Shown here piece by piece: positions 1,160-44,597 of a DNA stretch of 64,000 bases; position 1 is the first letter of the stretch, and every line of letters begins with the position of its first letter. The stretch is from Pseudomonadota bacterium (GTDB lineage: Bacteria > Myxococcota_A > Polyangia > Polyangiales > JAKSBK01). Under the pieces are notes generated by a model, which saw only the letters and a list, made by a program, of their open reading frames with translations, had not been told where the DNA came from and did not search any database. The stretch is taken from positions 27,462-91,461 of the forward strand of contig JAKSBK010000095.1 of assembly GCA_022361155.1 (NCBI GenBank), given 5' to 3'. A program made the position numbers and the translations under genes.

Positions 1160-3187
1160 GTGGACATGCGATTGAGCTTTTCTTTGCTTCGGGGGGTTGG
1201 AGCAGCGCTCATCCTGCCGCTGGCGGCATGCAGCGGCGACACGCCCGTACGGACGGCCGGGACCGGAGGGCAGGCCGGTACGGTTGGTGTGGGCGGCCGG
1301 GCCGGCACGATCGGTGTGGGCGGCCGGGCCGGCACGATCGGTGTGGGCGGCCAAGGCGGCACGATTGGTGTAGGCGGCCGGGCCGGCACGATCGGTCTGG
1401 GTGGCCAGGGCGGCACGATCGGTCTGGGTGGCCAGGGCGGTGGCTTTGGCGGCATGGGTGTAGCCGGAGTAGGCGCCGGTGTGGGCGGTACTGTCGTTGG
1501 CCCGGGTGGCTTCGGCGGCATCGGCGGCCCTGCGGGCATGGGCACGCCGCCCGATCCATTGACCGGGGCATGTTTGGTTCCAGGCACCTTGCAGTGCTTT
1601 GGCCAGTGCGTGGACTACAACCAGGACATCTTCAACTGCGGCGGCTGCGGTGTGATATGCGAGCCGGGCGCGGGATGCATAGCAGGCGCATGCCTGTGTC
1701 CACCGGGGAGCGTCGACTGCGTCGACGCTTGCGCGAATCTGCTGACATCGCCTACGGACTGCGGCGCGTGCGGCATCAATTGCGGTCCGGGCGGCGTTTG
1801 CGTCAACGGGCAGTGCCAGTGCCCTCCCGGCACCCAGCAGTGCAACCCACCCGGCCCTGCGACCCAGGCCTGCTTCACGAACTTCGAGTCGGATCCCTTC
1901 AACTGCGGCGGCTGCGGGGACTCCTGCGCGGTGGGCGAAATCTGCGTCGGCGGCCAGTGCCAGTGCGCGATTCCAGGCCAACAGGTCTGCGATGGTCAGT
2001 GCACGGACTTCCTGAACAACCCCTTTGACTGCGGTGGCTGCAACCAGCCCTGTGGGCCGGGAGGGTTTTGTGCCAACGGCCAGTGCCAGTGCGCGCCCGG
2101 GCAGCAGTACTGCCCGAATACTGGCTGCGCAAACCTCAACATGGATCCGCTCAGCTGCGGTGGATGCGACAACCAGTGCGATCCAGGCGCGCTGTGCATC
2201 GGCGGCACCTGCACCTGCTCCGGACAGACCTGCAACTTCAATCCGCCGGGCCCCGGAGGCTCACAGCAGCGCTGCGTAAACGGCGGATTCAACATCGACC
2301 CCATGAACTGCGGCAGCTGCGGCAACGAGTGCGGTCCCGGCAGCATGTGCCTGAACGGCCAGTGCTTGTGCCCGCCTCCAACCGTTGCGTGCACCCCGGG
2401 CGGTCCCGGCACGGTGGGCCTGAACACCTGCGCCAACCTGCTCACCGATCCGCTCAACTGTGGAACCTGCGGCACGGCGTGCGCATCGGGCGCCACCTGC
2501 GCCGGCGGTGTCTGCCAGTGTCCGCCCGGCCTGACCGCTTGCCCTCACGGCTGCGTCAATACGATGACGAACCCGCAGGACTGCGGCATCTGCAACAACG
2601 CCTGCCCGTCCGGTGGCGACTGCCTCAACGGCCAGTGCCTACCTTGCCCGCCAGGGCGCCAATTCTGCGGCGGCGGCTCGGTGCAGACGGCAGAGGGCTG
2701 CCGCCTGAGCACACCCAACTGGGAAGACACCGACCCGTTTAACTGCGGTATGTGCGGATTCCGGTGTCCGCGGGGCGCACACTGCGAGGGTGGCCAGTGC
2801 ATTTGCCCGCCTGGCGAGATCAACTGCGGTCGTTTCTGTGCGCTCCCCGGGCACTGCCCAGAGTACGCCCAGTGCACGCGGAATCCCAACATGGGAGGCG
2901 GCTTCTGCCGGCCCAACGGCCAATGCCGGGACAACGACGTGTGCTGCCGGCGTAGCGCTAGCACGGGTTCGTGGTGCGCCGACCCATGCAGCAGCAACGC
3001 GGAGTGTCCGCCAGCACCCTTTGCACTTCCGGTCCCGAATCCCGCCGTTCCGGTTTGTCAGGACATCGGTGGTGGGCGCTGTGCCCTGGATTGCACGTTC
3101 GGCCGCCAGTGTCCTTTGGGCATGCGCTGCCGCTCGGTGCCGTTCGGCGGCGGTGGAAATAACCCCTCCCAGATCTGTACCTGGTAG
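1160..3187 (+). CDS. secreted lipoprotein with Gly-rich nonapeptide repeats and nine Cys-rich (Stig1-like) repeats
   Basis: Signal peptide with lipobox LAAC (Cys24). Six to seven GG[RQ][AG]GT[IV]G[VL] repeats. Nine copies of [DN]P.[ND]CG.CG..C..G..C..G.C.C. A further Cys-rich tail follows. Confidence 0.85.
   Translation: MDMRLSFSLLRGVGAALILPLAACSGDTPVRTAGTGGQAGTVGVGGRAGTIGVGGRAGTIGVGGQGGTIGVGGRAGTIGLGGQGGTIGLGGQGGGFGGMGVAGVGAGVGGTVVGPGGFGGIGGPAGMGTPPDPLTGACLVPGTLQCFGQCVDYNQDIFNCGGCGVICEPGAGCIAGACLCPPGSVDCVDACANLLTSPTDCGACGINCGPGGVCVNGQCQCPPGTQQCNPPGPATQACFTNFESDPFNCGGCGDSCAVGEICVGGQCQCAIPGQQVCDGQCTDFLNNPFDCGGCNQPCGPGGFCANGQCQCAPGQQYCPNTGCANLNMDPLSCGGCDNQCDPGALCIGGTCTCSGQTCNFNPPGPGGSQQRCVNGGFNIDPMNCGSCGNECGPGSMCLNGQCLCPPPTVACTPGGPGTVGLNTCANLLTDPLNCGTCGTACASGATCAGGVCQCPPGLTACPHGCVNTMTNPQDCGICNNACPSGGDCLNGQCLPCPPGRQFCGGGSVQTAEGCRLSTPNWEDTDPFNCGMCGFRCPRGAHCEGGQCICPPGEINCGRFCALPGHCPEYAQCTRNPNMGGGFCRPNGQCRDNDVCCRRSASTGSWCADPCSSNAECPPAPFALPVPNPAVPVCQDIGGGRCALDCTFGRQCPLGMRCRSVPFGGGGNNPSQICTW
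1265..1426 (+). repeat. 27-bp in-frame tandem repeat (6 units plus a degenerate 7th) encoding GGRAGTIGV
   Basis: Units start at 1265, 1292, 1319, 1346, 1373 and 1400. Units 2 and 3 are identical (ggcggccgggccggcacgatcggtgtg). Confidence 0.9.
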
Positions 3188-3245: not shown

Positions 3246-5489
3246 CTAACGGTTGGCTTCGTCGAGACGCCGCATGCCTTCCAGGAGCAGGCTCTCTGGA
3301 GGCAGCTGGATTATGCGTTGATCGGGCTGAGCGTGGGGATCGAGCTCGAACTCGCCGCTCGTGAGCACGAGCATGGCGTAGAACGCCTCCTCTCCGGTGA
3401 GCTCGCCGAAGCACGCGCCAAAGATCTGCCCCTCGCTGAAGTCGATGCTGCCTTTCTGGCGGTTGGCCGAGATCGAGAGCCGTCCGCTCTTGCGTCCGTG
3501 AAACAGGATTTGGACCACGTCGGGCAACGACATCTCGCTGAGCGAGCCACTGACGCCGCGTTTGCCCTTGCGGTCTTTGGGCTTCGCGAGCACCTGCTGA
3601 ATCTTCAGCGCTACTACGTCCGCAGCCGAGGGTTTTGTGATGTAGTCGGCGGCCCCGAGCTCGAAGCCCTTTTGCACACTCGCGCTGGATGCGTGCCGCG
3701 TCAAGAAGATGAACGGTACCTCCGCAGTCCCTTTCGTCTCACGGATCTTGCGTAGCAGATCGAAGCCGTCTCGAGGCGAGAGCTCCACTTCACTGACGAT
3801 GACATCGAAGTCGGTGCCAGCCATTTCCTGAAGCGCCCTTTGCGAGTCGCGCACAGCGGTGACGTCGAAGCCGCGTTCGATCAGCCTCAGCTCGAGCACG
3901 GTAGCCTCTTCCGGATCCGGCTCCACGAGCAGCGCGCTGCCGCTGCCGGAAAGGAGCTTCGCGCGCAGATCGTCGCCCAACACGACGTAACGGAACAGAT
4001 CGATCAGATTGGGATCGAACAGCACGCCCCCGTGCTCGGCCAGCTGCTCCCACGCTTCCTGCGCCGAGAGCTTCCTGCCGGCGGGGTTGCGTGCACGGCT
4101 CGTGAGGTCGGTGTAACTCTCCACGATGGCGAGCACTCGAGACCCAAGGGGAATCCCGGAGCCGCTCAGCCGATCCGGAAAGCCCGTGCCGTTGTAGCGC
4201 TCATACAGGTGCATGAGCGACTTGATCGCGCTCTTGGGCAGACGCACGGACTCGAACAGCTTGATCGGCGTGAGGTAGCTCTTGCGAGCGCGCGCGTTGT
4301 GGCTGTCGTACTGGGCGACGTTGAACGCAGTCAGGTGAGGACTGGCGCTCTTGCCAACGTCGTGCAGGTAGGCGGCAGTCAGAAGAGCGTCCGCTTCCTC
4401 GCCGGACAAACCGAGCCGCTCACCCATGCGCCTGCAGATCCTGCAGACCTGCGCGGAGTGGCCCCGGAGCTCGTCCCGGTCCTGCTCGAGCAACGTCACC
4501 AGCACATTGAGCGTCTCGAGGTAGTCGTGGCGTGGGACCGCCCGCGTCGCTGCCGCGTCGTGGGTGGCAACCGCGCTATCGATGCGGGCGGGCTCGGCTG
4601 CTGCTGCCTCGGGAGGAGCCGCGGCTTCAGGGGCTACCCCGGCAGGTGGCAGCGGCGCCAAGCCTTGAGCTCGGCGATCGAGGACGGAGACCGGAACCGT
4701 CGCCTCTTGACCACCGAGCAAGACGGCGACGGGCGCTGGAAGTCCCGCCGGCGCCTGCGCAGCCGTGTCCAGGCCCGGACCAGCCACCGGTGCGATGGGC
4801 ACGGCGCGCGGCAGCTCCCGGGGGGGCTCCGAGGACGGCCCGCGATCCGTGTCGGCGGCTGGGATAGGATGGTCCGGGCCCTTGGTGGGCGTCGAGACCC
4901 AGGGAGCGGCCGGGAGCGACAAGGACGCCGAACTGTCCATCGAGCCCGCGTACCGCTCCAGGTTGCGGAAGGCCGCTCGGTCGCCGTCGTAATGCAGTGC
5001 AATCGCCGCGCGGATGGCGCCCGTGCGAGCAAGCAGGAGCTTGACGCGCCTGACGCGACTCGCGAACTGAAGATGCTTGCTGAGCTCCAGGTCCGTTGGG
5101 TCGTTCACCAGTACGAACAAGGTGTGCTGGCCGCCGTCGTAGCGCACCGGAAACGCCCCGAGCTCGTGCGCGACCTTCGCAGGTAGCAGCTTGAGCAGGG
5201 CCGGGCTCAGACGAAGCCGCTCGAGCTTGGAGGTCGACAGAAACTGGGTCCGGCATAGCTTGCCCAGGATCTTGAGCAGCTCGAGCTCGGGAAGGATCCC
5301 CAAATCTACGATGGCGTCGTCCAACCCGCACCCGAAGTTGTAGGCATGCTGCTCGCAAGCGTTTGCTTGCGCCTGTGTCAGCTGTCCTTGGCTAACGAGT
5401 CGCCGCAGGGTACGGGCGCCGGCACTGGAGGAACCTGATCGACCCACAGATTTGACTAGTGTAGCGCACGCGCGGGCGAACCGAAGCAT
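3246..5489 (-). CDS. multidomain c-di-GMP signalling protein: T2SSE_N/MshEN-like, Pro/Ala linker, HD-GYP, response-regulator receiver, DUF4388
   Basis: N-terminus LVSQGQLTQAQANACEQ...LVNDPTDLELSKHLQF resembles the GspE N-terminal domain. HD-GYP motifs are GHSAQV..AAYLHDVGK and ERYNGTGFPDRLSG..IPLGSR. The REC domain has ALLVEPD..DVIVSEVEL..DYITKP. The C-terminal segment is GSLSEMSLPDVVQILFHGRKSGRL (DUF4388). Confidence 0.85.
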   Translation of the reverse strand: MLRFARACATLVKSVGRSGSSSAGARTLRRLVSQGQLTQAQANACEQHAYNFGCGLDDAIVDLGILPELELLKILGKLCRTQFLSTSKLERLRLSPALLKLLPAKVAHELGAFPVRYDGGQHTLFVLVNDPTDLELSKHLQFASRVRRVKLLLARTGAIRAAIALHYDGDRAAFRNLERYAGSMDSSASLSLPAAPWVSTPTKGPDHPIPAADTDRGPSSEPPRELPRAVPIAPVAGPGLDTAAQAPAGLPAPVAVLLGGQEATVPVSVLDRRAQGLAPLPPAGVAPEAAAPPEAAAAEPARIDSAVATHDAAATRAVPRHDYLETLNVLVTLLEQDRDELRGHSAQVCRICRRMGERLGLSGEEADALLTAAYLHDVGKSASPHLTAFNVAQYDSHNARARKSYLTPIKLFESVRLPKSAIKSLMHLYERYNGTGFPDRLSGSGIPLGSRVLAIVESYTDLTSRARNPAGRKLSAQEAWEQLAEHGGVLFDPNLIDLFRYVVLGDDLRAKLLSGSGSALLVEPDPEEATVLELRLIERGFDVTAVRDSQRALQEMAGTDFDVIVSEVELSPRDGFDLLRKIRETKGTAEVPFIFLTRHASSASVQKGFELGAADYITKPSAADVVALKIQQVLAKPKDRKGKRGVSGSLSEMSLPDVVQILFHGRKSGRLSISANRQKGSIDFSEGQIFGACFGELTGEEAFYAMLVLTSGEFELDPHAQPDQRIIQLPPESLLLEGMRRLDEANR

Positions 5490-5555
5490 CTATGGGCCCA
5501 CCCGGGAGCGAACTTTGCCGCTTCGTCGCCTCCGGCTACCTCGGGGTGCGACCGG

Positions 5556-6080
5556 ATGATGCATGTATGCCATGCTGGGCAGCGTGGCATGAACCGAGGG
5601 ATTGCCAGGTATCCCATCGTGGCGGCAGGCAGCGACCGCCTTGGCGGTCTTTTTGCCCGGCTCGCGTCATGGGCCCGCTCCGTGTGGAATTTCGCTACCT
5701 GCGTAGCCCTAATCACGTTGCCGATGCCGGCGCGCTCGCAGGATGCTCCGCAAGCGACCACCCCTCGGCCCTGCTCTTTGCTCTGGCGGCGCGTCAACAG
5801 CCCTGCGCACGCCAGAGCGGACGTGCTCGTCGCTCAAGCCCGGGCTCACCTGAAGGCGTTCTCGCGCGCGAGGCAGCAGCACGCTGGCTGGGTCACGCGG
5901 TGCCGGATCGCCCACGCTCATCCACCGAGTGGAGATTCACGACCGGCGCGCCGTGGTCGCGCGCGTGCCCTGCAGCGCTGGTTGGCGCGGGAGATGCGGG
6001 ATCGGGTGCACCTCGACAACGCGCTGGCCCGGCTGGAGCAGGCTCGACGACTCGCGCCGTCGGATCCCGCCATACTCTAG
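5556..6080 (+). CDS. hypothetical protein (possible signal peptide; weak call)
   Basis: 174-codon ORF with high third-position GC. It has a hydrophobic stretch WNFATCVALITLPMPARSQD. I recognise no family. It is convergent with the AOS gene. Confidence 0.3.
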   Translation: MMHVCHAGQRGMNRGIARYPIVAAGSDRLGGLFARLASWARSVWNFATCVALITLPMPARSQDAPQATTPRPCSLLWRRVNSPAHARADVLVAQARAHLKAFSRARQQHAGWVTRCRIAHAHPPSGDSRPARRGRARALQRWLAREMRDRVHLDNALARLEQARRLAPSDPAIL

Positions 6081-6102
6081 CTGCCTTGGCTCACGTAAAG
6101 GA

Positions 6103-7332
6103 CTAGGGCTCCATCGGTCCGAGATCCTCTCCCGACAACACATAGAAGGCTTCACCGTAGGCCGCCAGGAGCTCGAGCGCCTTGTCCATGTCCTCGCGGC
6201 TGTGTCCGCGTGTGACATTGAGCCTGAGCCGTTCTTCGCCTTGCTTGACCCCCGGATAGGTGATGGGCACCATCATCACACCGTTTTCGAGCAGGGCCAT
6301 GTGCATGAACAGCGCCTTGCGCTCGTCCCGGCACATGACGGGCATGATGTGGGTGTCGCTGATGCCGAGGTCGAAGCCAATCTGTAGCAGCCTGCTGCGC
6401 ATGTAGCGCGCGTTTTCGTGCAACTCCTGCACCAAGGCCTCCCCCTCTGCCTCCAACATGTCCAAGATCACGGACGCCGTGGCTACGAGCGGCACGGGCA
6501 ACGACGCGCTGAACAGAAAGGAGCGAGCGTAGTGTTGCACGTGCTCGACGACATCGATCGTGCCGAGCAACACGCCCCCGATTGCGCCGAAGGTCTTCGA
6601 AAACGTGGTTACGCTGATCGGAACGCGCCCGCGCAAGCCCAGATGCTCGATCACACCGGTTGCCCGCCTTCCCAGCGTCCCGGTCCCGTGGGCGTCATCG
6701 CAGATCAACACGGCGTCGTGGCGTTCACAAACCTCCACCAGCTCGGCGAGTCGGGCCATGTCCCCGTCGAGGGAATAGATGCCCTCCACGAGAACCAAAG
6801 CGTTGGGGCGATCGCTGGTCCTCAGGCAGCGTTCAAGCGAGCGAGCGGAGTTGTGATTGAAGAAGCGTACTTCCGGTTGCCGGCCGGGAGTACCTGCCGC
6901 CAGAAAGGTACCGTCCAAGATGCAGGCATGGCTCAGATTGTCGAGGACGATCGTCGTGTCCTTGTCAGCCAGCGACATGATCGTCCCGACCATGGCCTGG
7001 TAGCCGGTTGTGAAGATCAGCGCCCTGTCGTAACCGAACCAGGCCGCGAGGCGTTCTTCGAGCTCCACATGCGCTGTAGTCGTGGCCTGGACACGCGACG
7101 AGCTGAGCCCGCACGCGAACCGATCTACCGCGGCTCTGGCAGCCTGCTTCACCAGAGGATGCGTGGTTAGGCCCAAGTAGTCGTTGGAGCTGAAGTTGAC
7201 GATCGGTTTGCCCTGGATCGTGGTATGCAATCCCCCGCTTTCGAAGGGCCTGAAGAACGGGTAGACTTGACGGCTTTGTGCGTCGCGCACGCGCGACAGC
7301 TGCGAACGTGCCTTGTCGTCAGCCCAGCTCAT
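6103..7332 (-). CDS. alpha-oxoamine synthase family PLP enzyme (serine palmitoyltransferase / 8-amino-7-oxononanoate synthase-like)
   Basis: Motifs VNFSSNDYLGL, DDAHGTG and the PLP-lysine context TFSKTFGAIGG. Start taken at ATG 7332 (MSWADDK), which overlaps the upstream gene stop by 14 nt. The longer track ORF (to 7572) runs into the upstream gene. Confidence 0.9.
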   Translation of the reverse strand: MSWADDKARSQLSRVRDAQSRQVYPFFRPFESGGLHTTIQGKPIVNFSSNDYLGLTTHPLVKQAARAAVDRFACGLSSSRVQATTTAHVELEERLAAWFGYDRALIFTTGYQAMVGTIMSLADKDTTIVLDNLSHACILDGTFLAAGTPGRQPEVRFFNHNSARSLERCLRTSDRPNALVLVEGIYSLDGDMARLAELVEVCERHDAVLICDDAHGTGTLGRRATGVIEHLGLRGRVPISVTTFSKTFGAIGGVLLGTIDVVEHVQHYARSFLFSASLPVPLVATASVILDMLEAEGEALVQELHENARYMRSRLLQIGFDLGISDTHIMPVMCRDERKALFMHMALLENGVMMVPITYPGVKQGEERLRLNVTRGHSREDMDKALELLAAYGEAFYVLSGEDLGPMEP

Positions 7333-8533
7333 GACCCTCTTGCTCGCAGCGTCGTACGACCACGACCGAGACGTTGCCATAGTAGCCGAGCGTGATGACG
7401 ACCGCGGTGCGCGGGCGCGAGCGCAGCGCGCGTCCGACGAGCGGCACCACGGGTGCGCCCGCGAACCAGGCCAGCACCGTGGCAAGCGCAAACGCCCCGC
7501 TCGCGCCCAGGGTCTCTCCCAACAGGGCCTTTGGCAGCGCGGTGCTGATGTCGGCTCCGAAAAACTCCTCAACGGCGTTCAGCTCGGTGGAGTCGAAATG
7601 CGGAATGCCGCAAGCCGCGCTGCAAACGACGTCCACGTCCTGCGGGCTCAGACAGGCGTCTGCGAGCGCGTTGCGAAGCGCCCGCAAGATCGCCGACTTC
7701 GACACGTGCACGAGCGAGGCCTCCGAAGGAGGCGGCTCGAAGCCGGCGCCATAGCCCACTATCTCGGCGCGGATGCAGGCGCCTCTGGCTTTGGCGGCCT
7801 CTGGAGGCTCGATGCACAAGTAGACGGCGCCCTCACCCAGCCGCATACCCTTGCTGGCCGGTGAGCCGGGCGCGAAACCGGACGGTTGCTCCGCCAGTGC
7901 CCCCAGCTTGCGGAAGGCCAGGTACAACGGCTCGCTCAGCACTTCGCCGCCGCCCACAAGGAACATGTCGGCTCGATGGTGAGCCAGGTGGTTTTGACTG
8001 CTCAGGACGCCGTCGAGCGCCCCGCAGTTGCCGTCTACGATCGTCACATTCGGCCCACGCAGGTTCTCCCAGATACCCACGTAGGCGGAAGGCGAATTGA
8101 TCACCGTGTTCGGGAATCGATTGGGATTCAGAAAACGAGGATCTTCGAACTCGGCTACCAGATTCAGCTCGGTGATCGCGTCAAGCGAACCGTACGCCGT
8201 GGCCGAGCATACGCCCACGCGTTCGGGTGAGCCCGTGAGGTGCGAACCGTTGCGCTTGATGCGGGCGTCTTCGAGTGCGAGCTTGGCGGCGACGATGAGG
8301 AATTTCGTCAGCCGATCGAAATTACGCAAGCCTTTGCGTCCCAGGTAGGAGCCCGCGTCGAAGTCGCGCACCTGCGCCGCAAGCGTGTTGCCGGCGTGCT
8401 GCGGCGACAACACGTCCAGTGGAGGTCCAAACGCATGTTCGGCCGCGGCCCCGCCTCGCAGCAGCTCGAAAAACCGCCTTCGGCCCACGCCCAAGGGGCC
8501 AACGACGCCCAGTCCGGTGACGGATAGCTTCAC
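7319..8533 (-). CDS. ketosynthase-like partner protein lacking the Cys-His-His triad (CLF/KS-beta-like)
   Basis: Thiolase-fold KS homology begins at KLSVTGLGVVGPLG. The active-site position aligns as DGNCGAL against AACAAGN in the neighbouring KS. The two His positions read AACGIP and LGETLG. Start proposed at GTG 8533. Confidence 0.8.
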   Translation of the reverse strand: MKLSVTGLGVVGPLGVGRRRFFELLRGGAAAEHAFGPPLDVLSPQHAGNTLAAQVRDFDAGSYLGRKGLRNFDRLTKFLIVAAKLALEDARIKRNGSHLTGSPERVGVCSATAYGSLDAITELNLVAEFEDPRFLNPNRFPNTVINSPSAYVGIWENLRGPNVTIVDGNCGALDGVLSSQNHLAHHRADMFLVGGGEVLSEPLYLAFRKLGALAEQPSGFAPGSPASKGMRLGEGAVYLCIEPPEAAKARGACIRAEIVGYGAGFEPPPSEASLVHVSKSAILRALRNALADACLSPQDVDVVCSAACGIPHFDSTELNAVEEFFGADISTALPKALLGETLGASGAFALATVLAWFAGAPVVPLVGRALRSRPRTAVVITLGYYGNVSVVVVRRCEQEGHELG

Positions 8534-8547
8534 CAGGGCACCCGGTG

Positions 8548-8594
8548 CGTCAAGGGCCCGCGGAAGAATAGCTCGTGTGTTTCGGCGAGGACCG
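8548..8594 (-). repeat. copy 1 of a ~50-nt intergenic repeat family (in the KS / KS-like spacer)
   Basis: The minus-strand sequence is cggtcctcgccgaaacacacgagctattcttccgcgggcccttgacg. It matches copy 2 at 34/39 positions and copy 3 at 38/51 positions (hand alignment, no gaps). Confidence 0.75.
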
Positions 8595-8702
8595 GGCGCC
8601 GCTGGCGAGGCGCGACGAGGAGTATTGGGGATACTTCGAGGAGGAGCAACATGGCCAGCGGTGGTCGGAACCGGCGAAGTGGATGGGTTATTCTTCCGGG
8701 CC

Positions 8703-9935
8703 CTAGGACAACGCCGTTTCGGGCAGGCGACCCGCGCGGGCGAACGCGAGCACCGCATCGTAGCCACCAAAGGCAAGGGCGTTGTTCAAGACCACACCGC
8801 TCGGTCCCCGAGTAGCCTGGTTCGCCACCAGGTTGATGTCGCATTCGGGGTCCGGCGTTTCGTAGCCGACCGTGGGGGGGTAGACGCCAGTTTGCACCGT
8901 CATCACGCAGGAGACGGCTTCGAGCGCGCTAGCGGCACCCATGCAGTGACCCAGCATGCCCTTCATGCTGCTTACGGGAACGGGGCGCTCGCCAAACACT
9001 TCGCGAATCACGCGCGACTCGATGCGATCGTTGGCGTGGGTACCCGTGCCGTGTGCATTGATGAAGTCCACTTCATCCACGGCAAGTCCGCTTTCGTCGA
9101 TGGCGGCTTGCATTGCTGTGCGGATCCCGGCGCCCTCGGGGTGCGGGCGGGTGATGTGATGAGCGTCGCAAGCGAGCCCGCAGCCGCCGATTTCGGCGAG
9201 CGGTGAAGCTCCGCGTGCGGCCGCGTGACGCTCGGATTCCAGAATGAGCATTGCCGCACCCTCACCCAGGATGAGGCCCTTTCTGTTCTTGTCGAACGGC
9301 TGGCAACGCTGCCGTGCCATAGCCCCCAAGCGCACGAAGCCAGCGAACTCGAGACGCTGCAGGATCTCACTGGCTCCGCTGATGGCGACGTCGGCACGGC
9401 CGGCGCGGATGTGGTCCGCTGCAAAACCAATGGCATAATTGCCGGCCGCACATGCCGCGGGCAGTGTTTGAACCATGCCCTGCGCGCCAAACGCCCGAGC
9501 GATGTGAATCGGCAGCAGCGTCGTGCCGTATCGGGGGATCTTGCCTTTGTCCACCGCCTCCACGCCCTCGCGGAACCATGTGCTCTCGAGCTCTCCGATG
9601 ATATCGGCCTCACCCATGGTGGTGCCTACAACGACCGCGGTGCGCTCGCCGGCGAGCAGGCCGCTGTCGAGCTTTGCGTCCTCCACGGCCATGCGCGCCG
9701 CCGCGAGCCCGAAGGCGGAGCAGCGGCCCATCCGGCGTGCCTCGGCCCCGGTCAGGAAGTCACGGGGCCGGAAGCCCTTGACCTCCCCGGCAAAGCACCG
9801 GTCGAGGCCGCGCGTGTCGAAGGTCTCGATCGGGCTGAAGCCGCAGCGTCCCGCCACCATGGAATCCCAGAACGCCGTGCGTCCAAGACCCAGCGAGCTA
9901 ACAACCCCCAGACCGGTAACAAAGACTCGCCCCAT
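8703..9935 (-). CDS. beta-ketoacyl-ACP synthase (FabF/KAS II-like, catalytically complete)
   Basis: MGRVFVTGLGVV N-terminus. Active-site Cys in LPAACAAGNYA. His in NAHGTGTHAND and GMLGHCMGAAS. Start taken at ATG 9935. Confidence 0.9.
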   Translation of the reverse strand: MGRVFVTGLGVVSSLGLGRTAFWDSMVAGRCGFSPIETFDTRGLDRCFAGEVKGFRPRDFLTGAEARRMGRCSAFGLAAARMAVEDAKLDSGLLAGERTAVVVGTTMGEADIIGELESTWFREGVEAVDKGKIPRYGTTLLPIHIARAFGAQGMVQTLPAACAAGNYAIGFAADHIRAGRADVAISGASEILQRLEFAGFVRLGAMARQRCQPFDKNRKGLILGEGAAMLILESERHAAARGASPLAEIGGCGLACDAHHITRPHPEGAGIRTAMQAAIDESGLAVDEVDFINAHGTGTHANDRIESRVIREVFGERPVPVSSMKGMLGHCMGAASALEAVSCVMTVQTGVYPPTVGYETPDPECDINLVANQATRGPSGVVLNNALAFGGYDAVLAFARAGRLPETALS

Positions 9936-9971
9936 GCGAGTGGACCTATGAGCGCACGTGACAGCTTCTAG

Positions 9972-10015
9972 CCAATCGTGACACCTTGCGCAAGCAAGGC
10001 GCATCGGCCGATTGG
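9972..10015. promoter_or_regulatory. nested inverted repeats in the divergent promoter region of the biosynthetic cassette
   Basis: Outer arms are CCAATCG (9972-9978) and CGATTGG (10009-10015). Inner arms are CCTTGC (9984-9989) and GCAAGG (9994-9999). They overlap the palindrome TTGCGCAA (9986-9993). Confidence 0.3.
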
Positions 10016-10040
10016 CCTAAATCCAAGGTGCTTGCCGCGC

Positions 10041-10069
10041 TTGACAGCTCCTGAACCTGCCCATAGATA
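10041..10069 (+). promoter_or_regulatory. candidate sigma-70-type promoter for the FAAL-ACP-ACP-thioesterase operon
   Basis: TTGACA (10041-10046), a 17-nt spacer, then TAGATA (10064-10069), about 75 nt upstream of the FAAL start. Confidence 0.4.
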
Positions 10070-10142
10070 GTGCGCCCACCCGAAACCTGGGACCGAGCAT
10101 GAGGCGCCGCCGCAGGGTCGATGGGCGTTGCTTTGCCGGTCC

Positions 10143-11843
10143 ATGCGACCGCGTTGTGATGGCGTGACCCAGCCCGCAGCACAGACGCTCGTTTCCGCGC
10201 TCGAGCAGCTGCCCAACGACAGCGAGCGAGGCTTCCGCTTCCTCGACCCGCAGGGGCAGGAGCGCAACTACCCCCAACGAGCGATCCGCGCCGAAGCCAA
10301 GCGCCGCGCCGCGCTGTTGCTACAGCACGGCCTGCGCAAGGGTGACCGGGTCGTCGTCGCCGTTGCTCAGGAAGACGAGTTCGTGCTGAGCTTCCTTGGT
10401 GCGGTGGTGGCCGGTCTGGTGCCGGTCCCGGTATCCGCAACCCCTTTGCTCAGAGCGGTCGATGGCCACCTTGGCACGCTGCGCCATGTGAGTCGGGCCT
10501 CCGGAGCGCGGGCTGTCGTCGTGATGGAACGCAACCGCTCGCTCCTTGGGGAGTTGTGGGATGGCCAAGATTTCGCGCCCCGGTTGCTCAGTGTGGAGGC
10601 AGACTTGGCGGGTGCACCGCAAGCGGACGTCGCCCTACCCCGGGTGACCCCCCAAGATCCATGTTTTGTGCAGTTCACCTCGGGCAGCACGGCGCTGCCC
10701 AAAGGCGTGACGATCACGCATGCCAACCTGGTCCGAAATGCCCGAGATTTCCTGGGGCCTTCGGGGCTCGATCGACGCGACGACGATCTTGGGGTGAGCT
10801 GGCTGCCGCTGTTTCACGATATGGGATTGATCGGCTTCATCTTGGGCACGCTGATCTGCGATATCCCGGTGGTTATCCTGCCCACGGCTGCCTTCGCGCG
10901 CAATCCGCGCAGCTGGCTCGAAACGATTCACAGCGTCAGAGGCACGATCACCTATGCCCCGAACTTCGCATACGGGTTGGCTGCCAAGCGCCTGCGCGAG
11001 CGCGATCTGGCTCGTTTGGACCTGAGCTGTCTACGCGTCGCCGGCTGCGGGGCAGAGCCGATCAACCCCGACACGATGCGCGCCTTTGCCCGGCGCCTCC
11101 AGCCGACCGGTTTTCGAGCCGAGGCCTTGCTGCCGTCGTACGGCATGGCGGAGGCAACACTCGCGATCACTTTTCATCCGCATGGCACGCCCCTGGCTAC
11201 CGACCGCGTCGATTCGGTGGCGCTCAGGGCTGGGCGAGCGACGCAAAGCGAGCGTGTCGCGCAAAGCACCGAGCTGGTTTCCTGCGGCCGGCCCTTTCCG
11301 GGCCATGAGCTGCGTACCGTCGACGAGCAGGGCCGGAAGCTTGGGGATCGGCAGGTAGGCGAAATCGTGGTGCGGGGTCCCAGCGTGAGCCCGGGCTACC
11401 ATAACGATCCAGCGGCGAGCGCTGCCAGCTTCAGAAACGGATGGTTGCACACGGGCGACCTCGGCTACCTGGCGGGCGGCAATCTGTACATTTGTGGGCG
11501 CGTCAAAGACCTCATTATCGTCCGCGGAGCGAACTACTACCCGCAGGACATCGAATGGTTGGTGAGCAGTCTTGAGGGCGTTCGGCGTGACAACGCGATC
11601 GCGTTTGGTGTGGTGCAGGACGGCGAGGAGCGGCTCGTCGTGGCGGCGGAGTGTGCCTCTGCGGACGCGCAACGGCTGCGCGAGGCCATCGCCGCCCGGG
11701 TCTCCGAGGCCACCGGGCTGGCTGTTGCTCGCGTCAGCGCCGTGCGGATCGGTGCCCTACCCAAGACGACCAGCGGAAAAGTTCAGCGACGCAAGACCAA
11801 GCAGCTCTTCGAGGAGGGGAAGCTCGAGGAGCACGGTCCCTGA
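10143..11843 (+). CDS. fatty acyl-AMP ligase (FAAL / FadD32-like adenylating enzyme)
   Basis: FVQFTSGSTALPKGV (A3 core), WLPLFHDMGLIGF, GDLGY, the insertion-containing FAAL-style C-terminal half, and LPKTTSGKVQR. The start is ambiguous (TTG 10128, ATG 10143 or GTG 10164). Confidence 0.88.
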   Translation: MRPRCDGVTQPAAQTLVSALEQLPNDSERGFRFLDPQGQERNYPQRAIRAEAKRRAALLLQHGLRKGDRVVVAVAQEDEFVLSFLGAVVAGLVPVPVSATPLLRAVDGHLGTLRHVSRASGARAVVVMERNRSLLGELWDGQDFAPRLLSVEADLAGAPQADVALPRVTPQDPCFVQFTSGSTALPKGVTITHANLVRNARDFLGPSGLDRRDDDLGVSWLPLFHDMGLIGFILGTLICDIPVVILPTAAFARNPRSWLETIHSVRGTITYAPNFAYGLAAKRLRERDLARLDLSCLRVAGCGAEPINPDTMRAFARRLQPTGFRAEALLPSYGMAEATLAITFHPHGTPLATDRVDSVALRAGRATQSERVAQSTELVSCGRPFPGHELRTVDEQGRKLGDRQVGEIVVRGPSVSPGYHNDPAASAASFRNGWLHTGDLGYLAGGNLYICGRVKDLIIVRGANYYPQDIEWLVSSLEGVRRDNAIAFGVVQDGEERLVVAAECASADAQRLREAIAARVSEATGLAVARVSAVRIGALPKTTSGKVQRRKTKQLFEEGKLEEHGP

Positions 11844-12117
11844 TCCGCATCGGTCACCAGCTTCCGGCACGAAGGTGGTGCGCCAAGGTCAGGCCGACCA
11901 GCTCCCGCGAGCTCAGGTGGCGCTGCGGCACGCGCCTGCTATAGCGCGGTGCGGTCCATGGGCGATCGCCCGGCTGCAACCTTGCTGCTGATGGGTCCCA
12001 GGGTACCGAAACGCCGCCAAAGTCAAGTGTCATGAACGAGCCAATCTGCGTGGACGACCGGGGGGGTTTGCGCGTATAAGGCATGCTGCGCGCGCCTCAT
12101 GGAGAGAAGGAGCGGAG

Positions 12118-12372
12118 ATGACTCGGGCTGAGCTGTTGGAGATGTTTCGATCCATGGCGAGCGAGATCGCGGAGAAGGATTTCAGCCATGTGGCCGAGGA
12201 CGCCGCGATCAAGGATCTGGGAATCGACTCCCTGGGTATGCTCGAGCTGGTCGGTGAGATGGAACGTACCCTGGAGGTACGCATTCCCGATGACAACCTG
12301 GTGGGTGTGCAGACCGTCCGGCAGTTGCTCGAACTGGTAGAGCGGCGCTTGCGCCCGATTCGGACGGCGTGA
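12118..12372 (+). CDS. acyl carrier protein
   Basis: 84 aa with phosphopantetheine motif LGIDSLGMLELV. A strong SD (gaaggagcggag) sits before the ATG. Confidence 0.9.
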   Translation: MTRAELLEMFRSMASEIAEKDFSHVAEDAAIKDLGIDSLGMLELVGEMERTLEVRIPDDNLVGVQTVRQLLELVERRLRPIRTA

Positions 12373-12491
12373 TCTTGACCAGCGGCAACTCGGCAAGGGC
12401 AAGGCTGGTGTACGCTGGCTGAGCGGGGCGCGCGCAGGACGCGGACAGGTAGACGGCGGATCCAAGAGCGATGCACGATCCAGGGGAAAGC

Positions 12492-12725
12492 ATGGGCCGG
12501 CAAGAACTGAGGGAGAAGCTACGGGCCATCGTTGCCGAGGTTAGCGAGGTCGACGATGTGCCCGACTCCAAGCCATTCAAAGACCTGGGCATCGACTCGA
12601 TGATGGCGATCGAGATCGTGGCGGAGGTGGAGCGGACCTTCCGGATCAAGATCCCGGAGGAGGAACTGGAGCAGATCACCAACCTGGATAGCGTGGTCGC
12701 GCTGGCTGAGGCCAAGCTGGCGTGA
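12492..12725 (+). CDS. acyl carrier protein (second, divergent copy)
   Basis: Motif LGIDSMMAIEIV. ATG 12492 is preceded by aggggaaagc. ATG 12471 is an alternative start. Confidence 0.88.
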   Translation: MGRQELREKLRAIVAEVSEVDDVPDSKPFKDLGIDSMMAIEIVAEVERTFRIKIPEEELEQITNLDSVVALAEAKLA

Positions 12726-12741
12726 GCGCAGACGCGCACCC

Positions 12742-13155
12742 ATGCAGCCCCCCCCGCAGGCCCGAACCAGCATCTATCGCCGCGTGGTCGACTACGTGGA
12801 CAGCGACCAGAGCGGAGTGGTGCATCATTCTGCGTACTTTCGCTACCTCGAAGCTGCGCGCATCGATCTGCTCGAGGCACGGGGACTGTGCTACGCGCGC
12901 ATGGAACGCGAGCAGCGGCTTGGCCTGCCGGTGGTGGAGGCGCAGCTTTGGTACCGTTCCCCAGCGCGCTGCGGGGATGCCCTGGTCGCGCTGAGCTGGA
13001 TCGGCCTCTTGACCGCAGCGCGCCTGTGCGTAGAGACGAACCTGGAACACGAAGGACGCCTGGTCCTCGAGGCGCGGATCACGCTCGCCTGCGTCGATCT
13101 ACGTACCGGACGAGCCCGCAGGCTGCCGGAGCAGCTACGCACAGCGCTTGGCTAG
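12742..13155 (+). CDS. hotdog-fold acyl-CoA/ACP thioesterase (4HBT / YbgC-like)
   Basis: 137 aa with VDSDQSGVVHHSAYFRYLEAARIDLL, typical of the 4HBT family. It starts 17 nt after the second ACP. Confidence 0.8.
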   Translation: MQPPPQARTSIYRRVVDYVDSDQSGVVHHSAYFRYLEAARIDLLEARGLCYARMEREQRLGLPVVEAQLWYRSPARCGDALVALSWIGLLTAARLCVETNLEHEGRLVLEARITLACVDLRTGRARRLPEQLRTALG

Positions 13156-35573: not shown

Positions 35574-35612
35574 CACGCGGGGGCGAGCCCTCCCGTCCGC
35601 GCAGGCCGCACC

Positions 35613-36086
35613 ATGGATATCGATCTCAAGCAGCTTCGCGAGCTCATGCGAGCGATCAAGGAATTCGGGCTGTCGCAGCTCGTCGTCGAAAAGGGCGACG
35701 AACGGATCGAACTGCACCGCGTCGCCAAGGTCTCGAGCGAGGCGCCCGCCTTGGCGGGCCCGGCGACCCAGTCGGAGTTGCCGCCCTCGATGCGGGCCGA
35801 GAGTACGCCGGCGGTGGTTGCGCCCAAGGTGACCGAAGACCCCAACACGGCCTACGTCACGTCGCCGTTCGTGGGCACCTTCTACCGTGCTCCGTCTCCG
35901 GGCGAAAAACCCTACGTCGAAGTCAACCAGCACCTGGCACCCGGACAAGTGCTCTGCATCGTGGAAGCGATGAAGCTAATGAACGAAATCGAGGCGGAGT
36001 ACGAATGCACCGTACTCGAGATCCTGATTCAAGACGCGCAGCCCGTGGAATATGGTGAGCGCCTGTTCAAGGTTCAGAAAGTATAG
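35613..36086 (+). CDS. accB: acetyl-CoA carboxylase biotin carboxyl carrier protein
   Basis: Biotinyl-lysine motif CIVEAMKLMNEIEAE and a Pro/Ala linker. Confidence 0.95.
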   Translation: MDIDLKQLRELMRAIKEFGLSQLVVEKGDERIELHRVAKVSSEAPALAGPATQSELPPSMRAESTPAVVAPKVTEDPNTAYVTSPFVGTFYRAPSPGEKPYVEVNQHLAPGQVLCIVEAMKLMNEIEAEYECTVLEILIQDAQPVEYGERLFKVQKV

Positions 36087-36146
36087 ACCCCGCGGGCCCT
36101 TAGCAGGCGCCCGGCTTGGCGGGCGCCCCCGGACCGGCCGCAGCCC

Positions 36147-37499
<1,353 letters not shown>

Positions 37500-40478: not shown

Positions 40479-40505
40479 TACTGGGACTAGGACTAGGACC
40501 TGCCC

Positions 40506-41354
40506 TTGAGAATCGAAGCGTCCTTTCTAGAAATCGCCTCGGCGTATCGGTTCGTGTTCCTTGACGCTTACGGCGTGCTCAAGAACTCCACGGGCATGAT
40601 CCAGGGCGCCGCGGAGACCCTGCTCAAACTGGGGGAACAGGGTAGCGACTGCTACGTGATTACAAACGACGCGTCCCGCTCTCCAGGCCAAATGGCGCGC
40701 AGCTACTGCCACCCGCGCTACGGCGAGCTGGTCCCCGTCGAGCACATCATCTCCTCGGGTATGCTGGCCAGTGACTTTCTTGCCTCCAAGGTCCGCCCCG
40801 GTCGTGTAGCCTACGTCGGCAAGCCGTCGTCCGCCTACTACATCGAGTCCGCGGGACACACGCCGCTGCCGGTCGCTCAGTGCGCCGACGACCACGCCAT
40901 AGATGCTCTCGTGCTGCTCGATGACGAAGGTTTCGACTGGTTTTCAGATATCAACCGCTGCGTCAACCTACTGCGGCGTCAGAATGTACCCGTCGTCGTG
41001 GCCAACACCGACCTGTCCTATCCGGCCAGCGAAACCGATGTCTCGATCGCAGTAGGAAGCCTGGCCAATATGATCGAAGGAATCATCCAGAAAACCTTCA
41101 TTCGTTTTGGCAAGCCGGACACTCAGATATTTGATTTCGCATACGACCTAGTGCTGACTCGCGATCCGCTCACAAGCAAGAAGCAAGTCTTGATGGTCGG
41201 TGACACACTACATACAGATATCCTGGGCGGAAACAAATTTGGAATAGACACGCTGCTGGTTCTCTCGGGAAATACACAGGAACGCGATGCCGAGGTTCGA
41301 ATCCACGCTACGGGTATCCTGCCAAACTTCGTTTGCGCATCGATCGCGACCTGA
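40506..41354 (+). CDS. HAD-superfamily subfamily IIA hydrolase (NagD-like phosphatase)
   Basis: Motif I FVFLDAYGVL, motif II VITNDAS, and motif IV MVGDTLHTDILGG. TTG start. GC content is visibly lower than the flanks. Confidence 0.8.
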   Translation: MRIEASFLEIASAYRFVFLDAYGVLKNSTGMIQGAAETLLKLGEQGSDCYVITNDASRSPGQMARSYCHPRYGELVPVEHIISSGMLASDFLASKVRPGRVAYVGKPSSAYYIESAGHTPLPVAQCADDHAIDALVLLDDEGFDWFSDINRCVNLLRRQNVPVVVANTDLSYPASETDVSIAVGSLANMIEGIIQKTFIRFGKPDTQIFDFAYDLVLTRDPLTSKKQVLMVGDTLHTDILGGNKFGIDTLLVLSGNTQERDAEVRIHATGILPNFVCASIAT

Positions 41355-41363
41355 GGTCCCGTC

Positions 41364-42419: not shown

Positions 42420-42543
42420 GCACCGGTAGTGTAGCCGGCTGGCCCCGCCATTGCAGGACCGGCTGGTAGGCGGGACGTGCCGGCCGCCAGCTCGTCGCCG
42501 GGGGGTCTTGCGTCGCAATCATGCGACCGCTAGTACCCGACAC

Positions 42544-43428: not shown

Positions 43429-43430
43429 TC

Positions 43431-43459
43431 AGACAGGCTTGACCGAGCCAAGCCTGTCT
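43431..43459. terminator. bidirectional hairpin between convergent lgt and SDR genes
   Basis: Perfect 11-bp stem AGACAGGCTTG / CAAGCCTGTCT with a 7-nt loop, lying between the two stop codons. Confidence 0.55.
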
Positions 43460-44297: not shown

Positions 44298-44597
44298 CCA
44301 AGCGCCCCTCCTGTTTGCGGTCTCACCGACTGCCCGCCCCGCCACAGGTCCACGTTCGCGCCCATCGCCTGCCGTCGCTGGGCACCTGGCTGTGTGACGC
44401 AAGCCCTCGCAAAGTCAAGCCAACGCCACAGCTGCTGCCAGCGCCGGCGACGCTGTACCCCAAGGGTAGCCTGAACGTTCGGATCGGTTGACCGAGAACA
44501 CGCTCCCCGGTACTCACTGGTTTGCACCTGGTTCCCTTCCACAAACCGCCGATCGCACGACCCGGGCGCCGCTGGAACCCGACACCGGGCCGTTTCT

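Follow-up and report, generated by a model that had tools for sequence, protein, structure and literature searches.

A conserved Polyangia gene cassette that joins a serine palmitoyltransferase-like alpha-oxoamine synthase to a ketosynthase pair: a candidate sphingoid-base pathway

We describe a compact gene cassette in a 64,000-nucleotide stretch of DNA from a Polyangiales bacterium (assembly GCA_022361155.1, contig JAKSBK010000095.1, positions 27,462 to 91,461), the whole of which was analysed and is called the window below. Its seven genes, which lie in two divergent groups, encode a pyridoxal phosphate (PLP)-dependent alpha-oxoamine synthase (AOS), a complete ketosynthase (KSa) with a ketosynthase-like partner (KSb), a fatty acyl-AMP ligase (FAAL), two acyl carrier proteins (ACP1 and ACP2), and a hotdog-fold thioesterase. 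Taken together, these genes most likely represent a conserved Polyangia lipid module whose product is a long-chain alpha-amino-ketone, from which a sphingoid-type base would derive.

Results

Seven intact genes flank a shared control region

Domains were assigned to the cassette genes by Pfam and NCBIfam scans, and the conservation of motifs was judged on alignments of 56 to 81 orthologues (56 for KSa, 59 for KSb, and 81 for the AOS). All seven genes are real, intact, and functional-looking (Table 1). A first-pass annotation, made from the letters of the DNA alone, had listed the same seven genes with the same domains, and the scans found every one of them intact. Its statement that the AOS and KSb genes overlap by 14 nt was confirmed, as the stop of KSb runs over the start of the AOS at 7319-7332, and the control region that it had put at about 200 bp measures 207 nt between the starts of KSa and the FAAL. 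It had also reported no ketoreductase (KR), dehydratase (DH), enoylreductase (ER), ceramide synthase, or other reductase close by. In the window near the cassette we likewise recognised no KR, DH, or ER, no CerR homologue, and no ceramide synthase; for KR, DH, and ER this was judged by Pfam and by tblastn with the E. coli fab proteins. In the window, KSa and KSb are separated by a non-coding spacer of 169 nt (8534-8702), while the two genes abut or overlap in the orthologous loci L083, L084, and L101. The reading frame of KSb is open throughout this spacer.

Table 1. Genes and control region of the cassette, with positions in the window
Feature	Position	Strand	Length	Support
AOS, PLP-dependent alpha-oxoamine synthase, serine palmitoyltransferase (SPT)-like	6103-7332	-	409 aa	Pfam Aminotran_1_2, 4.8e-51
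KSb, ketosynthase-like partner without catalytic triad (chain length factor (CLF)-like)	7319-8533	-	404 aa	Pfam ketoacyl-synt N and C domains
KSa, complete FabF-like ketosynthase, Cys-His-His	8703-9935	-	410 aa	NCBIfam fabF, 386 bits (cut-off 494)
Divergent intergenic control region between KSa and FAAL	9936-10142		207 nt	Read from sequence
FAAL, AasR-like family	open reading frame (ORF) from TTG 10128, likely ATG 10143, to 11843	+		Pfam AMP-binding and DIP2-like C-domain
ACP1, accessory carrier protein	12118-12372	+		Pfam PP-binding, 2.8e-11
ACP2, core carrier protein	12471-12725	+		Pfam PP-binding, 1.1e-15
4HBT/YbgC-type hotdog thioesterase, accessory	12742-13155	+		Pfam 4HBT_2, 2.1e-15; NCBIfam YbgC/FadM scores under cut-off

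Five of the seven genes form a common core across Polyangia

A scan of one genome per species returned 80 related loci, all from uncultured Polyangia (Polyangiales, Sandaracinaceae, Polyangiaceae, and Labilithrix), with an AOS that is 70-80% identical. Gene presence was counted by tblastn over the 52 species-level loci that extend 9 kb or more upstream of the AOS. Both ketosynthase genes accompany the AOS in 43 of these, ACP2 is present in 43, the FAAL in 34, ACP1 in 30, and the thioesterase in 16. The common core consists of KSa, KSb, AOS, FAAL, and ACP2, found together in 33/52 loci; ACP1 and the thioesterase are often missing, and the complete set of seven was seen in 12/52. ACP1 nearly always co-occurs with the FAAL. 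KSa and the FAAL are divergent in 45 loci, with a median spacer of 155 nt.

The flanks of the cassette vary by clade and carry unrelated housekeeping genes, including CTP synthase, thiE/thiG, aminoacyl-tRNA synthetases, kinases, and MlaE. Because the AOS is 70-80% identical across families in such varied housekeeping contexts, a core lipid pathway fits the distribution better than a sporadic natural-product cluster. The arrangement is not rigid: in several clades, unrelated genes for a lipoprotein and for an outer-membrane beta-barrel-like protein have entered the space from KSb to the AOS, with the neighbourhood otherwise intact, and some genomes carry the AOS without a KS pair within 10 kb. 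In a neighbor-joining (NJ) tree of the AOS, one nested clade unites the loci in which ACP2 alone is divergent from the AOS, and a second small clade has neither the KS pair nor ACP2 beside the AOS; adjacency to the KS pair is therefore ancestral.

Dozens of Polyangia species-level genomes were confirmed to carry the cassette, and about 250 contain a relative of the AOS. Soil, freshwater, and wastewater metagenomes are rich in close homologues. More than 120 AOS clusters are at least 74% identical, and all of them carry generic names or none. Homologue searches with the AOS and KSb were filled by Polyangia orthologues. In the public annotation, KSb is the same 404-aa protein (P0121), named "hypothetical protein".

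The AOS is SPT-like but stands in a clade of its own

The AOS meets no NCBIfam equivalog cut-off (Table 2). As a control, the experimentally studied E. coli BL21 Spt scored 599 on the BetaP SPT model (cut-off 500), yet it also reached 333 on bioF, so a bioF score of about 320 is the generic background of AOS enzymes. Among solved structures, the best relative is the S. multivorum SPT (6e-71, 243 bits), followed by a Thermus BioF/Kbl enzyme (222 bits) and by Kbl and E. coli BioF (about 200 bits). Pairwise BLAST gave 239 bits with S. multivorum SPT against 189-191 with E. coli BioF and Kbl. The identities are 33% to S. multivorum SPT, 32% to E. coli BioF, and 34% to E. coli Spt.

Table 2. Scores of the AOS on curated NCBIfam models
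Model	AOS score (bits)	Cut-off (bits)
bioF (TIGR00858)	322	426
CFB-type SPT	309	640
Kbl	285	460
BetaP SPT	273	500
AlphaP SPT	226	670
5-Aminolevulinate synthase (ALAS)	213	339
CqsA	178	428

The PLP Lys (TFSK), the His (LSHACILDG), and the DDAHG motif are conserved in the 81 sequences, in which 212 of the 409 positions are at least 90% conserved. The PLP Lys, the stacking His, the Asp/His at N1/O3', and the carboxylate Arg align with K244, H138, D210/H213, and the C-terminal Arg of S. multivorum SPT, a set that is common to all AOS enzymes and does not discriminate between them. With S. multivorum SPT and the Spt, BioF, and Kbl of E. coli for reference, an NJ tree whose deep branches are star-like placed the window clade together with P0361-P0363 and P0367 in a lineage of its own, outside all four reference groups. 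Judged by model scores and tree, the AOS is a distinct clade that belongs strictly to neither SPT nor BioF. A position inside the BioF clade, which the first-pass annotation had named, together with the lack of another bioF, among the outcomes that would speak against its lipid pathway, was supported by neither. The clade also shares a loop, SS(S/A)R-x-QA(T/H) (SSSR-V-QAT in the window), that falls one residue short of the SRF(L/I)xGT found in SPT and Kbl; in S. multivorum SPT, the loop Gly80-Asn85 with Phe83 lines the acyl site (PMC10196870).

Relatives of the AOS were sought with HMMER among 1.84 billion cluster representatives, in which the orthogroup collapses to very few. The nearest representatives are P0361 (58% identical), P0362 (49%), P0363 (47%), and P0367 (about 40%), with P0362 as the closest beyond the orthogroup, and many of the further relatives have the CFB-type SPT as their best NCBIfam model, at 378-537 bits. 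P0362 (744 aa) is an AOS fused to a C-terminal short-chain dehydrogenase/reductase (SDR). The specific C-terminal part of this SDR has a sole match, the yeast-type 3-ketodihydrosphingosine reductase (KDSR) TSC10 (3.9e-10, next 8e-4), which includes the EN(K/R)TKP motif. A metagenome scan found no close relative of P0362. In P0382 (1093 aa), an AOS about 40% identical to that of the window is part of a FAAL-ACP-AOS fusion. Two other identities for the AOS were rejected: cysteate acyltransferase of sulfonolipid synthesis, a weaker match that belongs to a Bacteroidetes lipid, and a CqsA/LqsA autoinducer synthase, the lowest-scoring AOS family at 178 bits.

KSa is a complete ketosynthase and KSb its inactive-looking partner

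KSa has the catalytic set Cys-His-His plus Lys, with ACAAGNYAIG, DAHHITRPHP, and NAHGTGT conserved in the 56 sequences. In KSb, an Asn occupies the position of the Cys within a DGNCG motif (at least 90% conserved in the 59 sequences), and Ser/Glu and Ala align where the two His would be. The first-pass annotation had described this partner as having no catalytic residues, which holds for the Cys and both His but not for the Lys, which is retained, and a conserved Cys follows one residue after the catalytic position. In our own alignment, with GP(N/S)-x6 as the register, the Asn of KSb aligns with the Gln position of the CLF. KSa and KSb thereby match the pattern of an active subunit with an adjacent paralogue that lacks Cys-His-His.

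The best solved relatives are 9s5h_B for KSa (2e-113) and 9s5h_C for KSb (8e-41). Chain 9s5h_B was confirmed as an anammox (Brocadiales) protein, and the unpublished PDB entries 9s5h and 9s5i represent an anammox KS heterodimer with its ACP. The corresponding anammox cluster (L088:7194-13449, DAOMBN010000026.1) has the order ACP, FabZ, KS, KS, a phytoene-desaturase-like protein, and a B12 radical SAM protein. KSa shares 45% of its residues with the anammox KS P0241 and 34% with E. coli FabF, and KSb is 30% identical to the second KS of that cluster. Homology to the co-deposited chains B and C of 9s5h suggests that KSa and KSb form a heterodimer as well. On the model of the cispentacin ketosynthase AmcF, KSa scored 230 bits (cut-off 325) and KSb 84 bits. 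A head-to-head condensation of the Pks13/FadD32 type was considered for these genes and rejected, as matches were at the superfamily level only and neither a carboxylase nor an acyltransferase (AT) domain is present.

The FAAL, the carrier proteins, and the thioesterase

By its family ranks and motifs, the AMP-binding enzyme is a member of the FAALs in general. Its best NCBIfam family out of 107 is NF006624, PRK09192 "fatty acyl-AMP ligase", at 502 bits against 427 for the next, and FAAL families fill most of the top ranks; the score is under the PRK09192 cut-off of 600, and E. coli BL21 AasR reaches 870 on the same model. With AasR, the FAAL shares 36% identity over 552 aa (full length, E 1e-105). 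This identity, along with the shared best family, strengthens the link to Caulobacter-type sphingolipid loci that the first-pass annotation had drawn. The motifs WLPLFHDMGLIG and YAPNFAY are conserved in the orthologue alignment, as are the FAAL-type WLPLFHDMGL and APNFAY.

Both carriers keep the serine of their attachment motif, LGIDSL in ACP1 and LGIDSMM in ACP2, and both are weakly similar to AcpR. ACP1 has T. maritima ACP as its best solved relative, followed by type II polyketide synthase (PKS) ACPs and AcpM. For ACP2, the best are the anammox amxACP (7qv0_D, 7auf_A) and 9s5i_E, and it is 43% identical to the ACP of the anammox cluster. ACP2 is also the only cassette gene kept beside the AOS in one clade. 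The thioesterase has a conserved catalytic Asp region, Y.(T/S)D..G..HH.

Control region and surroundings

The 207-nt spacer between KSa and the FAAL contains no consensus sigma-70 promoter and no match to an Rfam riboswitch or other RNA. A motif C(G/T)TGACA(G/C)CT occurs in it three times (9957-9967, 9977-9987, and 10040-10050), with two copies 20 nt apart and the third overlapping a promoter-like TTGACA-N17-TAGATA. This motif was found in only about 10 of 45 orthologous spacers and is not conserved across loci.

No other pathway-related genes were found in the 64-kb window. Downstream of the AOS is a gap of about 600 nt (5490-6105) with a terminator-like hairpin at 5634-5649 (+); a public 204-aa ORF at 5492-6106 (+) has no Pfam match, is Arg/Pro-rich, and looks like a wrong frame. 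Beyond the gap are a multidomain regulator with MshEN, HD-GYP (HD_5), receiver, and DUF4388 domains (3246-5489, -), homologues of which lie near the cassette in a few loci (L001, L014, and L015) and not generally, and a 675-aa secreted protein with Gly-rich repeats followed by many Cys-rich GxCxCPPG-type modules (1160-3187, +). AccB and AccC, the biotin carboxyl carrier protein and biotin carboxylase (35574-37499, +), lie 22 kb from the cassette and are probably unrelated housekeeping genes. A region of lower GC content (40500-45200, 0.58 against about 0.65) contains ordinary genes, for Lgt, an SDR, a HAD hydrolase, and a phosphotransferase-like protein, and no RNA genes; the SDR (43458-44402, -) shares only 27% identity with the KDSR-like domain of P0362.

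Among the related loci, the gene next downstream of the AOS encodes an SDR in a single clade (L065:4130-4870, -, and seven other loci). In the Polyangiaceae/Labilithrix clade, a thiE-thiG-LPLAT-ABC block downstream of the AOS includes the gene for a divergent LpxL/LPLAT-family acyltransferase (L050:13476-14429, -, and 11 other loci). Either the SDR or the LPLAT-family acyltransferase could act on the product of the AOS. As a sphingolipid gene, the LpxL-like acyltransferase of these 12 loci was set aside, since it is part of a clade-specific synteny block. The "epimerase" and "hexapeptide transferase" genes of the clade with only ACP2 were also set aside; they are HpnA-like and CysE-like, stand beside a phosphoglucomutase gene, and are probably unrelated.

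Discussion

We propose a route in which the FAAL supplies a dedicated ACP with a fatty acid, KSa and KSb extend the chain, and the SPT-like AOS condenses the product with serine, a sequence of steps for which we find belief and doubt about evenly balanced. The FAAL would adenylate a free fatty acid and move the acyl group to a dedicated carrier, ACP1 if present and ACP2 otherwise. KSa, as a heterodimer with the dead KSb, would take up the acyl group on its Cys and condense it with malonyl-ACP2, with housekeeping FabD charging ACP2, and KSb would shape the pocket and thereby set the chain length. The beta-keto group would most likely be processed by housekeeping FabG, FabZ, and FabI to a saturated acyl-ACP2 of defined length, which the AOS would condense with an amino acid, most likely L-serine, to release CO2, holo-ACP2, and a 3-keto long-chain base. 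Unlinked enzymes would then reduce and N-acylate this base, and the thioesterase, where present, may free mis-loaded carriers. The gene content, the intact catalytic motifs, the dead state of KSb, the synteny, and the family relationships are observed, while we infer all substrates, how many rounds of extension take place, what becomes of the beta-keto group, the heterodimer, and how the two ACPs share their work. The order that the first-pass annotation had outlined, from activation and loading on an ACP through Claisen extension to decarboxylative condensation with an amino acid, fits all the evidence found.

A sphingoid-type pathway is favoured because the FAAL, ACP, and AOS mirror the AasR-AcpR-Spt system, because the AOS is SPT-like, and because a relative of the AOS is fused to a KDSR-like domain. 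AasR-AcpR-Spt is a validated system, in which the acyl-ACP synthetase AasR charges a specialised carrier, AcpR, that serves Spt (PMC9386255). The delta-proteobacterial SPTs of Bacteriovorax, Myxococcus, Stigmatella, and Sorangium group with the Bacteroidetes type, and aasR/acpR-like operons have been noted in Sorangium, Myxococcus, and Stigmatella "in different genomic contexts" (PMC9386255). The SDR gene that follows the AOS in one clade lends further support. The clade that keeps only ACP2 beside the AOS helps to define the likely substrate. Its AOS has only 7 fixed, conservative differences, and since ACP2 is retained and the AOS nearly unchanged, acyl-ACP2 is the probable substrate, and its chemical class is probably the same whether or not a KS pair lies alongside. 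As an AOS without an adjacent KS pair hardly differs, this substrate is probably an ordinary acyl-ACP, which favours reduction by the housekeeping type II fatty acid synthase (FAS-II).

Several points weigh against a sphingoid-type pathway. The AOS is under every curated SPT cut-off and outside both reference SPT clades in the NJ tree, the loop that walls the acyl site of S. multivorum SPT is one residue shorter and without its Phe, and serine specificity is not readable from the sequence. The KDSR-like fusion P0362 belongs to a sister lineage, outside the orthogroup of the cassette AOS. No homologue of E. coli CerR was found by tblastn in the window or in any of the 80 related loci, and no bCerS or GNAT-type ceramide synthase was recognisable near the cassette, judged solely from the Pfam annotation of the flanking genes. 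Sphingolipid precedent leaves the role of the KS pair unexplained, because no described bacterial sphingolipid pathway uses one. Finally, a bioB gene adjoins the cassette in 7 of the 80 loci, and a KS with a special ACP beside bioF has genetic support in Desulfovibrio (PMC10102598).

The last two observations belong to a biotin route, which we consider unlikely, with the AOS as a divergent BioF and the other genes as makers of pimeloyl-ACP. The FAAL would load a short dicarboxylate, such as glutarate, on ACP1, and KSa/KSb would add one malonyl unit on ACP2 to give 3-ketopimeloyl-ACP2; after reduction by FabG, FabZ, and FabI, the AOS would join pimeloyl-ACP2 with L-alanine to 8-amino-7-oxononanoate (also 7-keto-8-aminopelargonate, KAPA). 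In the BioZ route, pimeloyl-ACP arises from a glutaryl primer through one KS step and subsequent reduction by FAS-II, and a scheme of this kind would explain the missing KR, DH, and ER and account for every gene of the cassette. The level of conservation and the housekeeping context would also suit a vitamin pathway, and the N-terminus of the AOS (MSW...YP...NFSSNDYLGL) aligns well with E. coli BioF. However, its bioF score of 322 is under the cut-off of 426 and no different from the background of a true Spt (333), it is not in the E. coli BioF clade of the NJ tree, and every comparison puts it closer to SPT. The FAAL falls with AasR and the long-chain FAALs, and the fusion of a sister-lineage AOS to a KDSR-like domain would make no sense for KAPA.

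The genes around the cassette point both ways for biotin. The bioB genes, 55-60% identical to E. coli BioB and detected by tblastn within 6 kb, lie directly beside the thioesterase gene in L008 (L008/L101:3249-4205) and L044 (2828-3781), whose outer flanks differ, and 4.7 kb from ACP2/AOS in five other loci (L079:4176-5162; L061, L066, L075, and L080). In D. vulgaris, moreover, biotin synthesis depends on a special ACP and a FabF-like KS whose genes adjoin bioF, as seen by randomly barcoded transposon sequencing (RB-TnSeq, PMC10102598) and predicted earlier (PMC545781), and this precedent, together with the bioB adjacency, keeps a BioF/pimeloyl-ACP function alive. Nevertheless, this Desulfovibrio-type cluster was found in only a few anaerobic phyla (Trotter et al., PMC10102598), bioA, bioD, and bioC were found in none of the 80 loci, and no BirA-type operator was found in the window or about 85 related loci. 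The bioB genes are never co-directional with cassette genes, being convergent or separated by other genes, and thiE/thiG adjoin the AOS in more loci (about 14), so adjacency to vitamin genes may be plain housekeeping synteny.

Improbable, in our judgement, is also a pathway after the manner of RedL and PigH, in which KSa/KSb carry out one condensation and the beta-keto group is kept. In prodiginine biosynthesis, RedL and PigI/PigG/PigJ/PigH combine adenylation, a carrier, a KS with an inactive KS partner, one or more malonyl ACPs, and release by an AOS with glycine or serine. By analogy, the FAAL would load a fatty acid on ACP1, malonyl-ACP2 would serve as the extender, and the AOS would condense 3-oxoacyl-ACP2 with serine or glycine. 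The resulting 2-amino-3,5-diketone could become an alkyl-hydroxypyrrole or pyrrolinone or be reduced to a 3,5-dioxygenated base, that is, a small diffusible molecule or an unusual head-group precursor and not a standard sphingoid base. The parts of the cassette map one-to-one onto RedL (A-ACP-KS-AT-ACP-AOS) and PigI/PigG/PigJ/PigH, with weak matches to the PigJ model and the PigH ACP, and neither the cassette nor a conserved neighbour encodes a KR, DH, or ER. Some KS heterodimers of a type II PKS-like kind add just one C2 unit to an adenylate-loaded ACP, and KSa and KSb match the model of one such case, cispentacin AmcF; enzymes of the AOS family also make signals (CqsA, LqsA). However, the likeness is at the superfamily level only, with 72 bits on the PigJ model (cut-off 900) and 230 on that of AmcF (cut-off 325), and the near-unchanged AOS of the clade with only ACP2 argues for an ordinary acyl-ACP substrate. 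The sister lineage has a single KDSR-like domain, no tailoring genes (O-methyltransferase, oxidase) lie nearby, and class-wide conservation at a housekeeping level would be unusual for a pigment-type or signal product.

It is very improbable that KSa/KSb/ACP2, with or without FAAL/ACP1, make or elongate a special fatty acid while the AOS works separately on a CoA or AcpP thioester as a mere ancestral neighbour: unrelated genes do stand between KSb and the AOS in several clades, the AOS occurs in some genomes with no KS pair within 10 kb, the homologous anammox module functions without an AOS, and other housekeeping synteny around the AOS is also long-lived, but KSa-KSb-AOS is kept in 43/52 loci though all flanks change, the genes overlap or abut in the window and in many loci (including the 14-nt KSb/AOS overlap), ACP2 stays with the AOS after the loss of the KS pair, and a FAAL-ACP-AOS fusion exists among related proteins.

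A bolder idea, which we put forward tentatively and think doubtful, extends the sphingoid-type pathway to a hybrid polyketide-sphingolipid route, in which a type II PKS-like heterodimer would build or extend a chain on a private ACP. The result would be a class-specific base, with a set length or with an extra 5-oxygen from the kept beta-keto group, that would serve as a core envelope lipid of Polyangia. An equally novel alternative under the same doubt would be a sixth route to pimeloyl-ACP, dependent on a FAAL and a KS pair, that feeds a divergent BioF.

Should the cassette prove to be the source of myxobacterial long-chain bases, it would explain the making of sphingolipids in a major group. 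Sorangium, which belongs to the group that bears the cassette, is said by Keck et al. in 2011 to lack lipopolysaccharide and to use sphingolipids in its outer membrane. Such a pathway would also add a ketosynthase step beyond any known bacterial sphingolipid pathway, whereas a biotin route would mean a new way to the pimelate moiety. Either way, the cassette offers a functional handle on a module of KS pair and special ACP whose anammox homologue has been without an assignment for 15 years, and its core is a compact, expressible system of five genes.

The first-pass annotation had not recognised the gene set as a described pathway, and we also found no paper on it. Full-text searches gave no paper on an oxoamine synthase together with a chain length factor, or on a bacterial SPT together with a ketosynthase cluster, and FAAL reviews make no mention of the set. 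What appears to be new is a bacterial SPT-type system with an added type II KS/KS-beta extension module, of which no description was found. The adjacency of bioB, the mapping onto RedL and PigI/PigG/PigJ/PigH, the anammox homology, and the five-gene core are additions to the first-pass annotation.

Among known systems, AasR-AcpR-Spt of Caulobacter crescentus and E. coli B likewise encodes a FAAL-type acyl-ACP synthetase, a dedicated ACP, and an AOS together, in the order FAAL-CerR-ACP-spt in E. coli BL21, and in one Polyangia clade the ACP is divergent from the AOS as acpR stands beside spt. The cassette differs in its KS/dead-KS pair, usually a second ACP, and sometimes a thioesterase, in an AOS under the SPT cut-offs, and in having neither a CerR homologue nor a recognised bCerS-type gene nearby. 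The S. multivorum SPT (3a2b/8guh) resembles the AOS in its PLP Lys, His, Asp/His, and carboxylate-binding Arg; unlike the proposed enzyme, it uses acyl-CoA and has no dedicated ACP or KS. The Desulfovibrio biotin cluster (DVU2558-DVU2565) also has a dedicated ACP and a KS beside an enzyme of the AOS family, and mutants in that special ACP and KS are biotin-dependent (PMC10102598). It includes bioA, bioD, and FabG-/FabZ-like genes with a single KS and no FAAL, while the cassette has no bioA, bioD, KR, or DH.

The type II PKS pairs of KS-alpha and CLF (actinorhodin 1tqy, ishigamide Iga11/12 6kxd, and cispentacin AmcF/G) share the design of an active KS with a partner lacking Cys-His-His, and their matches to KSa and KSb are significant, with scores lower than those to FabF and the anammox pair. 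The cassette differs from them in having no cyclases, KR, or DH and in the Asn-Cys of KSb in place of the CLF Gln. RedL and PigI/PigG/PigJ/PigH contain fused multidomain proteins, whereas the cassette is fully dissociated and has no AT and no pyrrole-tailoring genes. The putative "ladderane" cluster of anammox bacteria (9s5h/9s5i, 7qv0, and 7auf), whose ladderane function is unproven (PMC10139942), is close in KSa (45% identity), KSb (30%), and ACP2 (43%), and its partner KS also lacks the catalytic Cys, with a Val there where KSb has Asn. It differs in having FabZ, a phytoene-desaturase-like protein, and a B12 radical SAM protein, none of which occurs in the window near the cassette, and in having no AOS and no FAAL. 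By these identities, the Polyangia KSa/KSb/ACP2 and the anammox trio are homologous modules set in different contexts. Judged by their defining traits, the cassette belongs to none of the three systems AasR-AcpR-Spt, anammox "ladderane" cluster, and RedL/PigIGJH. The closest functional analogue of the cassette is AasR-AcpR-Spt, the closest structural relatives of its KS pair and ACP2 are those of the anammox cluster, and its closest architectural analogue is RedL/PigIGJH.

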